Positions 9,045-28,237 of a stretch of 46,475 nucleotides of DNA are shown here, piece after piece. This DNA comes from an uncultured Clostridia bacterium (GTDB taxonomy: Bacteria; Bacillota; Clostridia; TANB77; CAG-508). The notes beneath the pieces were generated by a model, which was given only the letters and a program-made list of their open reading frames with translations, ran no database searches and had not been told where the DNA came from. Every line of letters begins with the position of its first letter. Position 1 is the stretch's first letter. Position numbers and translations under genes: made by a program. The stretch spans positions 1 to 46,475 of the forward strand of contig CALXQV010000055.1 in the NCBI GenBank assembly GCA_944390535.1. The letters are read 5' to 3'.

Positions 9045-9243
9045 TTCAAAACTCTAAGAAGATTTTTTATATTTCAATTTTAGCAATAAAATATGTTGAA
9101 GTCAATGAAAATTTTAAAAAAATTTTAAAGAAAATATATATTAAAAAAATAAAAAATATTTTGAAAATTTTTTGATTAAAAACGTTAGAAAACCTTAAAT
9201 AACAACGCTTTAAAAAAATATCAAATCTTCTTAGAGTTTTGAA
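9045..9243. promoter_or_regulatory. Candidate invertible promoter cassette 1 (OFF orientation)
   Basis: Perfect 21-bp inverted repeat: TTCAAAACTCTAAGAAGATTT (9045-9065) and its reverse complement (9223-9243), enclosing a minus-strand promoter. Confidence 0.8.
9077..9105 (-). promoter_or_regulatory. SigmaA promoter inside cassette 1, pointing away from the pilin gene
   Basis: Minus strand TTGACT-N17-TAAAAT with extended -10 TG. Confidence 0.8.
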
Positions 9244-9367
9244 ATATAGGTAAAAAAACAAAAAATAAAATAGTATTGAATATGGAGTTATTTCTAATCA
9301 TAAATAAACCTAAAACCAAAGAATACATAATTAACAAAAATAAGAAACAAAAGGGGAATTTTAAGGA

Positions 9368-10591
9368 ATGAATAAATTTAGAAAAACAAAAAAGAAAAAG
9401 AATAATGGCATCACTCTAATTGCATTAATCATTACAATTATTATATTATTGATTTTAACAGGTGTAACGATTGCGACCTTAACAGGAGAAGATGGAATTT
9501 TAGAAAAAGCAACCAATGCAAGTGAAAAAACCAAAAAAGCCAATGCAGAAGAACAAGTAAAATTAGCAATAACAGCAAGTATAAAGCAAGATGGAAAGAG
9601 TGATTTAGAAGAGTTAAATACTGAGTTAGAGAAAATAGAAGGGCTGACATATAATAATGTTCCCATATCAGATAGAAATACAATAGAACTGCTACCAGCG
9701 ACAGTTAATGTAGATGGATATGATATTATTATTGACATAGACTTTGAGGAAATTATACCCCTTGTACCAGAAGGATTTTACCGTGTGAAAGGGACAACGA
9801 TAAAGAAAGGATTTGTTATTTCAGATGTAGAAGGAGATGATGTGAATAATACAAAAGGCGGAAACCAATATGTATGGATACCAGTCGATGGAATCTTAGG
9901 AGAAGATGGAAAAACCATACAAAATGCAGTTGATGGAGAAATTATATTAGGAAGATATACATTTAGTAGAAATGGAAAGATAAATACAAATTTGGTTCCA
10001 ACAACATTAGGAGGAGAAATAAAAATATATAATGAATTTACTGTGACAGAAACTTCTATAGGAAAAGGAAATACTACAGCAAAAGATATAAATGCATTTA
10101 TTAATAGTGTAAGAGAAAATGGAGGATACTATATTGCAAGATTTGAGGCAAGTAAAAATTCAAATACCAATAAAGCAGAAAGTAAATATAATAAGACTGT
10201 TTGGAATAATATAAGTCAACAAAATGCAGCAATAGCATGTCAAAATCTATATGCGGATGTAAATAGTGATTTAATAAATAGTTACGCATGGGACACAGCA
10301 ACCTTGTTTATACAAAAGTATGGAAAAACTGATTATTCATTTGAATATGGAGTATCATTTGGTTCATCATTACAAAGAACAGGTTTATCAAGAGATGTAC
10401 AATTAAATATTTATGATATGGCGGGAAATTGTTTTGAATGGACAACAGAAACTGGTAGTGACTCTAACAAGGCTGGTGTAGTTAGAGGAGGTGATTATTA
10501 TAACAAAAATGATTATATGAATGTTCGCAACTGGTCTAACCCATCTGTTACTTTTAACCAAGGTTCTTTTCGCCCAATTTTGTATTTCTAG
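9368..10591 (+). CDS. Pilin-like protein (class III signal peptide) with a C-terminal FGE-sulfatase/C-type-lectin-fold domain; probable DGR-type target
   Basis: Basic leader then G|ITLIALIITIIILLIL; GNQYVWIPV; GGYYIARFEAS; IYDMAGNCFEWT...RGG...SFRPILY at the extreme C-terminus. Confidence 0.8.
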   Translation: MNKFRKTKKKKNNGITLIALIITIIILLILTGVTIATLTGEDGILEKATNASEKTKKANAEEQVKLAITASIKQDGKSDLEELNTELEKIEGLTYNNVPISDRNTIELLPATVNVDGYDIIIDIDFEEIIPLVPEGFYRVKGTTIKKGFVISDVEGDDVNNTKGGNQYVWIPVDGILGEDGKTIQNAVDGEIILGRYTFSRNGKINTNLVPTTLGGEIKIYNEFTVTETSIGKGNTTAKDINAFINSVRENGGYYIARFEASKNSNTNKAESKYNKTVWNNISQQNAAIACQNLYADVNSDLINSYAWDTATLFIQKYGKTDYSFEYGVSFGSSLQRTGLSRDVQLNIYDMAGNCFEWTTETGSDSNKAGVVRGGDYYNKNDYMNVRNWSNPSVTFNQGSFRPILYF

Positions 10592-10713
10592 AAGTGTATA
10601 ATCCATAGTATTAAGGTCAAAGGTTGAAATATTTTTTATATAGAGAACATAGGAAAAAGAATGTAATTTTAGCAATTTAAAAAAGCAGAAACTAGATATT
10701 AAAATTTTACGTT

Positions 10714-10754
10714 ATAGTAAGTATAAGTAATTAAAAAATATACTTACTATTTTT
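10714..10754 (+). terminator. Intrinsic terminator after pilin-like gene 1
   Basis: ATAGTAAGTATA / TATACTTACTAT stem plus T-run. Confidence 0.6.
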
Positions 10755-10804
10755 ATATATACATAATAGGAAACTAGACAAAAATGTGATATAGTTTTAT
10801 CTAC

Positions 10805-26521: not shown

Positions 26522-26571
26522 ACAATTTAATGGTATAGAGAAAATTACAGCTCTATACCATTAAATTGTTT
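26520..26571. terminator. Long perfect hairpin, probably a bidirectional terminator
   Basis: 21-bp stem AAACAATTTAATGGTATAGAG / CTCTATACCATTAAATTGTTT with a 10-nt loop. Confidence 0.75.
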
Positions 26572-26657
26572 TACTATTCATTTTTAGTTCGAATGATACC
26601 TTTCCTGTCTTAATAGATTATTTATAGTTTATACTTTTTTAGAATTATTTTTCATTT

Positions 26658-26848
26658 ATTTTAATACTCTAAGAACATTTTTTATATCTCGATTTTAACA
26701 ATAGAATATGAGAAAGTCAATAGAATTTTAGAAAAAATTTCAGAACAAAATATATGTTAAAACTTAAAAAAATTCATAATAAGAAATTCAAAATATATTG
26801 AAATATCAATATGTTCATGCGACATTAAAATTCCTAGAGTATTAAAAT
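26658..26848. promoter_or_regulatory. Candidate invertible promoter cassette 2 (OFF orientation)
   Basis: 18-bp inverted repeat with 1 mismatch: ATTTTAATACTCTAAGAA (26658-26675) and TTCCTAGAGTATTAAAAT (26831-26848); interior homologous to cassette 1. Confidence 0.75.
26692..26720 (-). promoter_or_regulatory. SigmaA promoter inside cassette 2, pointing away from the pilin gene
   Basis: Minus strand TTGACT-N17-TAAAAT with extended -10 TG. Confidence 0.8.
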
Positions 26849-26947
26849 CAAAGATAAAAAATTATATACTAAACATTAAAGTGAAAGAAAGTACATAAAT
26901 AAAATCTTATACACAAAGAAAGAAGAAAAGAAAGGGGATATCAAAAG

Positions 26948-28237
26948 ATGAAGAAGGAAGAAAATAGAAAGAAAAAAGATTCCACAAAAGGAATAACCTT
27001 AATTGCATTAGTCATAACAATTATCGTGTTATTAATTCTAGCAGGAGTAACGATAGCGACACTAACAGGAGAAAATGGAATTTTATCAAAAGCAACAGAA
27101 GCAAGCAATAAAACAGAAGAAAAAAATGCAGAAGAAGAAGTAAAAATAGCTGTAATGGGAAGCATAGGAACAAATGGAGAGTTAGAGAATGAAGTACTAA
27201 AAGACAACTTAAACAAAATAGAAAATATAAGTGGAGTACCAGAGGAAATAACAGATAGTAGTTATCCATTAACTGTAACAGTAGAAGGAAAGCATAGTTA
27301 TACAATTAATAAAGACGGAAGCATAAAAGAAGTACCTAAAAGAGAAGGAATTAAAGTAGGAGACTACGTAAATTATACCTATGATGAAAAAGTGGAAGGA
27401 TATAACCTATTATCAACACAAAGTGGATATACAAGTGATCAAACAGTAAACCAAAAAAGCGGAATGAAATGGAGGATTTTAAATATCCATGCAAACGGAA
27501 CTGTTGATTTAATAGGAGATGTGAGTGCATCAGACCAAGGAATATATTTTAGAGGAGCGCAAGGATACAATAATGGAGTATATTTACTAAATGATATATG
27601 TAAAGAGCTATATAGTAACAGTAGTTTAGGATTAACAGCAAGAAGTATCAATATGGAAGATATAGAAAGTCAAATGAATGAAACAGGAATTGCAGCAAGG
27701 GATGTATATACATATGACGGAACACAATATGGAAAAACCAAAACATATACAGGAAGTTATGCAAATTATCCAAATCTATATGCGAAGGAAAAAGGAAGTG
27801 GAATAGATACAGTAGAAGTAAACACAAATGGAATAGAAAAAAGTGATAACGGATACACAAGCCCAACAACAGAAAGTGCAAGCAGACCAAGTAAAAGCTT
27901 AACGGCAACGGAAACATTTTACTTTTTTAGGCATACCCCAGCAAATTATTTTAAAGATTATGATGGAAATAGTAGTATAGTAAAAGATATATTGTTTAAT
28001 CAAGTAAACTATGGTTTAGCTTCTCGTTATGTTAAATGTGTCTCGTTTTATGTGGAGTTTGGTTTATGCGTTGTGGACAGTGTTGATTTTACTGGTGTAT
28101 GGTTATATGCATCAGCAGGGACTTCGAGTAGCAGCTACTATCGCCTTCGCCCTGTAGTTTCTCTAGGGACTGACATCAAAATCGAAGCATGTAAAGGAGA
28201 GAACAGTAGCACGAATATGCATGAAATAATTAAATAA
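26948..28237 (+). CDS. Pilin-like protein with a different C-terminal lectin-like (DUF6273-like) domain; probable DGR-type target
   Basis: G|ITLIALVITIIVLLILAG; VGDYVNY, KWRIL, GYNNGV..LN.IC; Y.LASR...LRPVVSL near the C-terminus. Confidence 0.78.
   Translation: MKKEENRKKKDSTKGITLIALVITIIVLLILAGVTIATLTGENGILSKATEASNKTEEKNAEEEVKIAVMGSIGTNGELENEVLKDNLNKIENISGVPEEITDSSYPLTVTVEGKHSYTINKDGSIKEVPKREGIKVGDYVNYTYDEKVEGYNLLSTQSGYTSDQTVNQKSGMKWRILNIHANGTVDLIGDVSASDQGIYFRGAQGYNNGVYLLNDICKELYSNSSLGLTARSINMEDIESQMNETGIAARDVYTYDGTQYGKTKTYTGSYANYPNLYAKEKGSGIDTVEVNTNGIEKSDNGYTSPTTESASRPSKSLTATETFYFFRHTPANYFKDYDGNSSIVKDILFNQVNYGLASRYVKCVSFYVEFGLCVVDSVDFTGVWLYASAGTSSSSYYRLRPVVSLGTDIKIEACKGENSSTNMHEIIK

Follow-up and report, generated by a model that had tools for sequence, protein, structure and literature searches.

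We examined a 46,475-nucleotide stretch of DNA (hereafter the window; contig C55) from the genome of an uncultured chicken-gut Clostridia bacterium, and in particular two genes for pilin-like proteins and the short promoter-bearing cassettes, bounded by inverted repeats, that lie upstream of them. The source genome (G000) comprises 1.71 Mb in 72 contigs at 28% G+C, with an estimated completeness of 84.6%, leaving about 15% of the genome unassembled. The first gene (9368-10591, plus strand) encodes P0001, a protein of 407 aa with an N-terminal hydrophobic helix of the GITLIAL type. The second (26948-28237, plus strand) encodes P0002, 429 aa long, with a C-terminal tip of the type targeted by the diversity-generating retroelement (DGR) of this genome. 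Over the first 112 aa the two proteins are 54% identical, and nothing is shared after that, in agreement with an earlier note on this DNA, which had described a common N-terminus and different C-termini.

Cassette A precedes the gene for P0001. Its left, gene-distal arm (9040-9074), located by an inverted-repeat search and by reading of the sequence, contains a core-type site with an outer half ending in CATAGAG, the centre TTCAAA and the inner half ACTCTAAGAA at 9051-9060. The right, gene-proximal arm (9214-9248) has an outer half of the TTTACCTATA or "leader-side" type. The two arms of 35 nt match at 86%, and they enclose a perfect 19-bp inverted repeat that can be read directly from the sequence (9045-9063 and 9225-9243). 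The promoter of cassette A (9077-9105, minus strand) has the form TTGACT-17-TAAAAT with TG before the -10 box; with 10 of 12 matches, it is the best of seven promoter-like sites there.

Cassette B, upstream of the gene for P0002, is built in the same way. The left arm (26640-26675) carries ACTCTAAGAA at 26666-26675 and the centre TTTAAT, and the right arm (26831-26866) carries TTCCTAGAGT at 26831-26840. These arms of 36 nt match at 83%, with a core (26659-26675 and 26831-26847) that agrees in 16 of 17 positions. The promoter (26692-26720, minus strand) is again TTGACT-17-TAAAAT with TG before the -10 box and 10 of 12 matches. In both cassettes the promoter is the top promoter-like site, lies on the minus strand and faces away from the gene, an orientation that we call OFF, as opposed to ON for a promoter facing the gene. 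The regions upstream of the two genes align with a mean column identity of 79%. The homologous cassettes, their bounding repeats and the outward-facing promoters that the earlier note had reported were thus all recovered. Its treatment of 9045-28237 as a single unit was not, as the two cassette loci are separate and unrelated genes lie between them.

The cassettes of the window belong to a family. G000 contains 27 matches to the pattern ACTCTARGAA or its complement, of which 22 make up 11 inverted pairs spaced 175-188 bp apart; the reversed pattern, used as a control, had no match in this genome. An nhmmer search with a profile built from the 11 exact-motif pairs added a twelfth copy, on contig C59, and one weak match. 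This brings the total to 12 copies of about 185 bp each, of which 11 adjoin open reading frames (ORFs) with a GITLIAL-type N-terminus, as the earlier note had suggested a genome-wide scan might find. Next to the cassette on C44 lies an ORF of 387 aa whose N-terminus is hydrophobic but different. A scan of G000 by N-terminal motif identified 28 pilin-like ORFs, some cut by contig ends, and 11 of these have a cassette. The cassettes thus form a dispersed family of 12 copies present in both orientations, but the proposal that each pilin-like gene has its own invertible promoter fails: only 11 of the 28 ORFs have a cassette, and tandem arrays of the DGR-type paralogues have a fixed promoter.

All 11 aligned copies had a promoter of the form TTGAC(T/A)-17-TA(A/G)AAT, situated about 20 bp from one arm. 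Judged by this promoter, three cassettes (on C4, C12 and C41) face their gene and the other nine face away. The flanks outside the cassettes are homologous as well, with an outer half-site of the TTTAC(T/C)TAGA type and a similar leader on the gene side, and a half-site of the (A/T)TTC(C/T)TAGA type on the far side. In a BLAST comparison, the interior of the C4 cassette (688-896) aligned in reverse orientation with window positions 9250-9040, whereas the leader and gene (866-1132) aligned directly with 9218-9480. Since the interior is reversed while leader and gene are not, one or more inversions with ends precisely at the repeats must have taken place in the history of the family. With separate cassettes and three of them ON at once, the data suggest independent ON/OFF switching, and not, as had been proposed, one invertase that selects which pilin is expressed.

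Cassettes were also found in metagenome contigs of a related species, where 19 hits comprised 3 ON, 7 OFF, 1 between two pilin-like ORFs and 8 that could not be assigned to either state. A motif scan of metagenomes returned 73 loci, with 18 true family members; the other 55 had neither outer half-site nor promoter and represent chance matches or other repeats. A metagenome search for relatives of the P0001 locus found none. Some apparent signs of flipping were set aside. Cassettes on three contigs of G010 (C117, C26 and C123; G numbers other than G000 denote genomes of the same genus) are 90-96% identical and have swapped flanks, but this level of identity marks them as paralogues and not as two states of one locus. 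The metagenome loci L164 and L170 (L numbers denote loci from relatives or metagenomes) share a 99.5% identical cassette in unrelated flanks, and so do not testify to flipping. Finally, 3 of the 12 cassettes in G000 lie less than 400 bp from a contig end, which we did not count as evidence, as the repeated 5' ends of the pilin genes explain this equally well.

The layout of the arms points to the class of enzyme. Each arm consists of an outer half C(T/C)TAGA-N-T, a centre of 5-6 bp and an inner half ACTCTARG(AA), which together form a 25-bp near-palindrome; the outer half lies outside the inverted repeat, which takes in the inner part and the centre. Tyrosine recombinases act on core sites in which two inverted binding halves surround an odd-length centre that must match between the partners, whereas serine invertases use an even, 2-bp crossover. 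Each arm resembles a complete core site of a tyrosine recombinase. In all 25 cassettes compared (11 in G000 and 14 at G010 or G061 loci), the two arms have the same 6 bp ahead of ACTCTA, and 11 different centre hexamers were found among loci. Centres that match within a locus and differ among loci would allow inversion and limit recombination between loci. A serine invertase was considered and rejected, as all six serine recombinases of G000 are large (473-630 aa) and the 25-bp site has an odd-length centre.

The window itself contains no recombinase, as the earlier note had remarked. Elsewhere in G000 there are five intact tyrosine recombinase genes and a split one. The split gene (C15:28630-29563, outside the window) is interrupted at a run of ten T's (29301-29310), with the first 230 codons in one frame and the last 83, which encode the HxxR motif, the His and the Tyr, in the +1 frame. 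The two pieces match PF00589 with 59.2 and 51 bits. P0003, the in-frame orthologue from G010 (310 aa), matches PF00589 with an E value of 1.9e-33 (116.1 bits versus a cut-off of 27.1) and has a SAM-like N-domain; its closest solved structure is the Int protein of Tn1549. The motifs TGLRIGE, HVLRHTFAT, LGHASV and NRYVH can be read from its sequence, the last three lying after the frameshift in G000, and we take them to supply the catalytic box I Arg, HxxR, C-terminal His and Tyr, respectively. P0003 stays below every NCBIfam cut-off, including those for XerC (85 versus 335), XerD (70 versus 330) and tyrosine-type DNA invertases (34 versus 221).

The distribution of this gene follows that of the cassettes. 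Scored over 338 genomes of the genus, orthologues of the C15 gene at 72-100% identity are present in 16, and 15 genomes, all of them among these 16, have 5 to 29 matches to the cassette pattern. Of the remaining 322 genomes, which have no orthologue, 318 have no cassette either and three have a single unrelated-looking match each. Two genomes contained a single match each to the reversed control pattern. The orthologue of G264 has a cassette at a distance of 1.7 kb; in the other genomes the gene is remote from all cassettes. The product of C15:28630-29563 is most likely the invertase, acting in trans. A remote trans-acting invertase, as postulated in the earlier note, is thus plausible, and the recombinase co-occurring across relatives that it had suggested looking for has a specific candidate.

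The candidate gene is out of frame in most assemblies. A T-run of 9-11 was found in 15 of the 16 species representatives, and the gene is shifted in 12 and in frame in 4. A run of nine T's leaves the gene shifted in G165 and in frame in G010; a run of ten leaves it shifted in G000, G070, G337, G339, G236, G234 and G356 and in frame in G340; a run of eleven leaves it shifted in G068, G061, G264 and G252 and in frame in G228. The shortest run, of five T's, occurs in G194, in frame. The sister genomes G165 and G228 have identical flanks and differ by two T's, the former with T9 and shifted, the latter with T11 and in frame. Near-identical full-length and truncated forms were also found among public proteins: full-length P0009 is 99.1% identical to the truncated G068 allele over 222 residues, and the full-length/truncated pair P0012/P0049 is 97.3% identical in the N-terminal part. 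Hence, tract length varies within species-level groups. The species of G000 is represented in 20 sequencing runs from 11 studies, mostly chicken-gut metagenomes.

In spite of the frameshifts, both halves of the gene are conserved. The ratio of nonsynonymous to synonymous substitution rates (dN/dS) was 0.07-0.12 for the N-terminal part and 0.006-0.04 for the C-terminal part, taken in its own frame, in 10 of 10 pairs among five species, including pairs with both genes shifted. Such strong purifying selection on both halves implies that the full-length protein must be made. An assembly error at the T-run was rejected as an explanation, as 12 species assembled independently all show the tract in shifted form and coding DNA is otherwise almost free of homopolymers. 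G000 has just 36 A/T runs with a length of at least 9, almost all intergenic, and the C15 run and one other are the two that interrupt a long frame. The other frame-splitting run is at C17:72690-72738, where a run of 30 A's and then one of 16 A's lie between long open frames. Replication slippage and transcriptional slippage at such tracts are established in other bacteria. We infer that active invertase would arise by the one, the other or both, and the sequence is compatible with either. The poly-T tract lies outside the window and was not part of the earlier note; no other element of the system is as novel or as testable.

The proteins encoded next to 11 of the 12 cassettes share the N-terminus K/N-G-I-T-L-I-A-L-V-I-T-I-I-V-L-L-I-L. 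The same N-terminus is found in a 149-aa pilin at the head of an operon of G000 that also encodes a prepilin peptidase, PilB and PilT; this pilin scores above the cut-off for N_methyl (22.5 bits). The C-termini are diverse. P0001 has a weak FGE-sulfatase/CLec-like signal (...EWTTET...RGG...SFRP; PF03781, E 0.024), and P0002 belongs to a family of about 16 paralogues, with 75-78% identity to ten of them. Other cassette-linked C-termini match Laminin_G_3 (C12) or CHB_HEX_C with fn3 (C59), or are weakly FGE-sulfatase-like (C43b). Profile searches of the PDB gave weak matches only (SUMF2, E 0.26; geopilin, E 0.04-0.15), and the ESM Atlas provided weak pointers to FGE-sulfatase for P0001 (10-15% of members) and to DUF6273 for P0002 (12-18%). 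The AlphaFold2 models were confident only for the pilin-like N-terminal part of P0002. We take the cassette-linked proteins to be putative pilus-associated or cell-anchored adhesins.

Of the pilin-like ORFs without a cassette, some form tandem arrays on C14 and C50 and others follow divergent helix-turn-helix genes. The upstream region of these ORFs is of another kind; it is fixed and contains repeated TGTGGATA/GGTGGA motifs. Upstream of C14:32058, C50:753 and C66:19236, two TGTGGATA/GGTGGA-like repeats precede a TATAAT box and may bind a regulator. The window contains a third pilin-like ORF (33465-33971, plus strand, 168 aa) with the N-terminus GITILALVITIIVLLILAG; it has no upstream cassette and no Pfam match.

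Together, the above observations are best explained by an inverton regulon, served in trans by the poly-T recombinase, with a separate DGR acting on some P0002 paralogues, an interpretation to which we assign a probability of roughly two in three. The elements in the window would be two of the dozen or so invertible promoters ("invertons") that make up a regulon, each cassette combining two inverted core-type sites with a single strong promoter of the sigma-70 type some 20 bp from one end. A tyrosine recombinase would flip the segment. In the ON state, the promoter would read through the gene-side site and a leader of about 100 nt into the gene for a pilin-like protein with a lectin- or adhesin-like C-terminus; in the OFF state, that of both window copies in this assembly, it would fire away from the gene. 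Independent switching at each locus would generate combinatorial surface variation. As the frame of the invertase crosses a hypermutable run of 9-11 T's, active enzyme would appear only after DNA or transcriptional slippage, which would keep switching rare and itself stochastic. The DGR, located on contig C66 and described below, would separately hypermutate the tips of some P0002 paralogues.

Several observations weigh against this interpretation. Among the assemblies examined, no contig shows one locus in both orientations, and the near-identical pairs or groups that might have done so (L069/L071, L164/L170 and C4/C41/C44) are paralogues and not alternate states. Cassette B is the only G000 cassette with positional orthologues among the loci compared, and in both G010 and G061 the orthologous locus is OFF, as in the window. 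The orthologous flanks of three other G000 loci (in G010, G061, G068, G070 and G077) have no cassettes, apart from solo half-sites; such poorly conserved positions would also fit a mobile or decaying element. The C44 cassette has two distal-type flanks, which could stem from duplication or from recombination between loci, and the C59 copy has a degenerate gene-side arm. Regarding the enzyme, G077 (85% complete) has two true cassettes and no orthologue of the C15 gene, G194 has the gene and no cassette of this motif, and the 15-16 genomes concerned are close kin, so that the co-occurrence may reflect a single evolutionary event. As to the proteins, PF07963 (N_methyl) stays below its cut-off of 21.2 bits in the window genes (18.2 for P0001, 13.4 for P0002). 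Type IV pilins usually have Glu at position +5 after the cleavage Gly, and the whole family has Ala there. Mean AlphaFold2 confidence (predicted local distance difference test) was 41.2 for P0001, from a 5-row alignment, and 42.1 for P0002, from 13 rows, which is too poor to judge a lectin fold either way.

The cassettes could be invertible and yet be flipped by a housekeeping-type Xer enzyme, with the poly-T gene unrelated to them, for example a decaying integrase. One of the intact recombinases of G000 scores above the NCBIfam cut-off as XerD, and XerD and XerC-like genes are near-universal in the genus. The candidate here would be the XerC-like protein encoded at C12:4994-5977 (328 aa), alone or with XerD. 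With 235 bits against the XerC cut-off of 335, this protein need not be a classical XerC, and Xer-type enzymes mediate such inversions in mycoplasmas, according to the part of PMC2268961 available to us. G077, with cassettes and no poly-T orthologue, also fits. Yet a search of 41 genus genomes matched the XerC-like gene in every one (E<=1e-20), about 37 times at full or near-full length and with 66-100% identity, and most of these carriers have no cassettes. The poly-T gene, on the other hand, tracks the cassettes (15 of 15 inverton-rich genomes) and is under purifying selection in both halves, unlike a decaying integrase. We consider an Xer-driven system unlikely.

A different possibility is that the cassettes no longer switch, or never did, and represent a repeated promoter module with terminal inverted repeats that spread in the manner of miniature inverted-repeat transposable elements, or by recombination, with its orientation frozen. 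The lack of any orientation polymorphism seen at a single locus in the assemblies, the differing cassette positions in close species, the degenerate arm on C59 and the 12 of 16 invertase alleles that are out of frame would all be consistent with this. However, promoters frozen away from the gene in 9 of 12 cases would silence most members of the family, yet the ORFs are intact. The identity of the centres within each locus, 25 times out of 25 despite 11 variants among loci, and the purifying selection on the recombinase are not explained either, and mobile-element insertion would not account for outer half-sites that are conserved as a motif in otherwise unique flanks. Frozen cassettes appear improbable, and the invertible promoters are probably still switching.

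The DGR on C66 is a genuine one. The earlier note had correctly seen neither reverse transcriptase nor template repeat in the window, and had proposed a search for them. The element comprises a reverse transcriptase (RT; match to PF00078), the only one found in a search of G000, an Avd-like ORF (NF033474 over the full length, E 1e-9, below cut-off) and a 154-bp template repeat (TR). The TR (C66:1236-1389) differs from a variable region (VR; C66:119-272) by 15 mismatches, which all fall on the 35 adenines of the TR; there is none among the 119 other positions (Fisher p 1e-11). The gene with this active VR starts at C65:26380 and continues at C66:1-358, the two contigs overlapping by 127 identical bases. 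It encodes a P0002-family paralogue and has a fixed promoter and no cassette. Fourteen further paralogous tips align to the TR with growing divergence at non-adenine positions, the next closest (C50:1-358) at 7 of 119.

As side observations, the RT lies on the strand opposite to TR and VR, and small ORFs flank the DGR core (C66:535-864, plus strand; C66:2541-2972, minus strand). Of these two, the 143-aa ORF matches the MutS N-terminal domain (E 5.6e-12), and the 109-aa ORF is similar by eye only and has no NCBIfam match. In its combination of RT, Avd-like ORF, adenine-only TR/VR differences and several paralogous VR-like tips, the C66 element resembles DGRs with multiple CLec-type targets. It differs from them in the RT on the opposite strand, the type-IV-pilin-like N-terminus of the targets and the drift of most paralogous tips.

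For the genes of the window, the evidence is different. P0002 contains a stretch homologous to a DGR variable region (28012-28165, plus strand), which departs from the TR at 21 of its 35 adenines and at 44 of the 119 remaining positions (Fisher p 0.02 for adenine bias), with three changes in a 16-nt GC-rich end element common to TR and active VR. We regard the P0002 tip as a diverged relic that is not a current target of the TR in this assembly. For the P0001 tip, no TR was found in the 85%-complete assembly, where it has ordinary paralogues only (C43, C15 and C36) and no adenine-biased partner. The idea of a remote DGR diversifying the tips therefore stands for P0002 paralogues, whose tips match the TR, and is unproven for the window genes; no single gene was seen to combine both layers. 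The full two-layer model of the earlier note, in which every expressed pilin, both window genes included, is chosen by inversion and currently diversified by a DGR, can draw on the presence of the DGR, on the alignment of its TR to P0002-family tips, on the mild adenine bias left in P0002 and on the further RT/TR pairs that could sit in the unassembled part of the genome, but is very improbable given the 37% difference of the P0002 stretch at non-adenine sites and its altered end element, the single RT and missing TR for P0001, and the fixed promoters, without cassette, of both the active DGR target and the tandem arrays.

On the interpretation favoured here, variation of one adhesin family might even be organized in three tiers, the T9-T11 run toggling or throttling the invertase, 5-29 promoter switches per genome being set by it, and the DGR rewriting the tips of further paralogues. 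We put this forward tentatively, as possible and somewhat short of probable.

Some further sequences deserve mention. Between the two cassette loci, the window encodes a two-component system, an FtsX permease, a DUF11 protein, an NAD synthase and an AMP-binding enzyme. The DUF11 protein (19264-21516, plus strand; 750 aa) has three DUF11 repeats and an SdrD B-like domain and is likely a surface protein. Three cassettes of G000 at different loci (C4:33124-33473, C41:13149-13594 and C44:22419-22768) are 95-98% identical; the centre TTCAGT occurs only in C4 and C44, and the gene-side flank of C44 is the reverse complement of the far-side flank of C4 over 157 bp. At the position orthologous to the C11 cassette, one half-site only is kept in L206 (G070:C47, ~1335-1413), L211 (G068:C7, ~3095-3180) and L210 (G077:C31, ~2249); G070 and G068 also retain the promoter-proximal part of the cassette, and these loci resemble decayed or locked copies.

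Other repeats were encountered during the searches. The metagenome contig Ga0209916_1000019 (520 kb, ~33-37% G+C) contains nine inverted pairs with arms ending in AACTCTAAGAAAT, 165-190 bp apart (loci L167, L169, L181, L184, L185, L187, L190 and L196). They have no outer half-site and no pilin motif nearby, and may be an unrelated repeat family that shares the 10-mer. A dispersed repeat of ~160-180 bp with 82-93% identity is present at C4:33007-33182 of G000 and on at least 12 other contigs (among them C43, C60, C25, C36, C16, C46, C23, C66 and C40). A shorter repeat of 35-90 bp, often in inverted pairs, is found at 38625-38769 of the window, at C66:5710-5800 and on more than 30 contigs, and may be terminator-like or similar to repetitive extragenic palindromes.

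Promoter inversion at multiple loci is already known from Bacteroides, C. difficile and mycoplasmas; the published sources compared here were available to us in part. In Mycoplasma penetrans, the mpl (P35) lipoproteins form a multi-locus family in which most genes have their own adjacent invertible promoter and are switched ON and OFF independently, with candidate tyrosine recombinases acting in trans (PMC2268961). The system of G000 is similar, being a putative surface-protein family with its own probable invertible promoters and a candidate recombinase in trans. It differs in that its products are not lipoproteins but type-IV-pilin-like proteins with lectin-like tips, and in repeats and organism. 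Neither an invertase interrupted by a homopolymer nor a DGR acting on paralogues is described for mpl in the available part of that source (PMC2268961).

In Bacteroides, dispersed promoters with one repeat motif are controlled by a global recombinase and direct the expression of surface structures (PMC2268961, PMC10403206, PMC12940148), and DGRs diversify the adhesins of type V pili (10.1101/2024.11.15.621889). The main text of the latter preprint contains no use of invert-, inversion, phase varia- or recombinase. The Bacteroides regulons (Mpi and tyrosine recombinases; capsules, type V fimbriae) resemble G000 in having dispersed promoters with a shared motif in a gut commensal, as far as the partial sources go. 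Mpi is a serine recombinase, unlike the enzyme that the site layout and the candidate gene of G000 suggest, which would be of the tyrosine type. In addition, the pili of Bacteroides are type V, whereas the G000 proteins are type-IV-like.

Invertons are documented within the Clostridia too, where repeats of ~13-25 bp about 200 bp apart, tyrosine recombinases and orientation shifts in reads have been reported (PMC11892184), and RecV switches are known in C. difficile (10.1101/690230). The invertases of the clostridial "inverton group 139" lie within 5 kb of their invertons (PMC11892184), whereas the candidate enzyme of the G000 type is remote in most genomes. The G000-type system further differs by its 5 to 29 cassettes of one motif per genome and its pilin-like cargo, although the supplementary tables of PMC11892184, which lie outside the part available to us, might list similar elements.

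The poly-T tract invites comparison with phasevarions, in which simple sequence repeats control a master regulator (PMC11868660). As in the model for G000, a hypermutable repeat in one gene gates many phase-variable outputs, so far as the portion of that source at hand describes them. The gene gated in a phasevarion encodes a DNA methyltransferase, and the change in expression is epigenetic. In G000, the gated gene would encode a DNA invertase that sets heritable promoter orientations. In the literature searched, we found no combination of invertons and a DGR on type-IV-pilin-like genes and no description of a repeat-gated invertase.

If the interpretation holds, an inverton regulon ahead of a large family of type-IV-pilin-like adhesins would be new for small-genome, uncultured gut Clostridia. 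Both the cassettes and the tracts break assemblies, and annotators are led to call the invertase a pseudogene; the candidate enzyme is now named and can be tested. A simple sequence repeat gating a DNA invertase would constitute an "invertase phasevarion", in which a contingency repeat within the gene for the invertase would determine the switching rate itself. With invertons in front of some members, and a DGR together with fixed promoters for other members, one protein family within one genome would offer a natural system in which variation of expression can be compared with variation of sequence.

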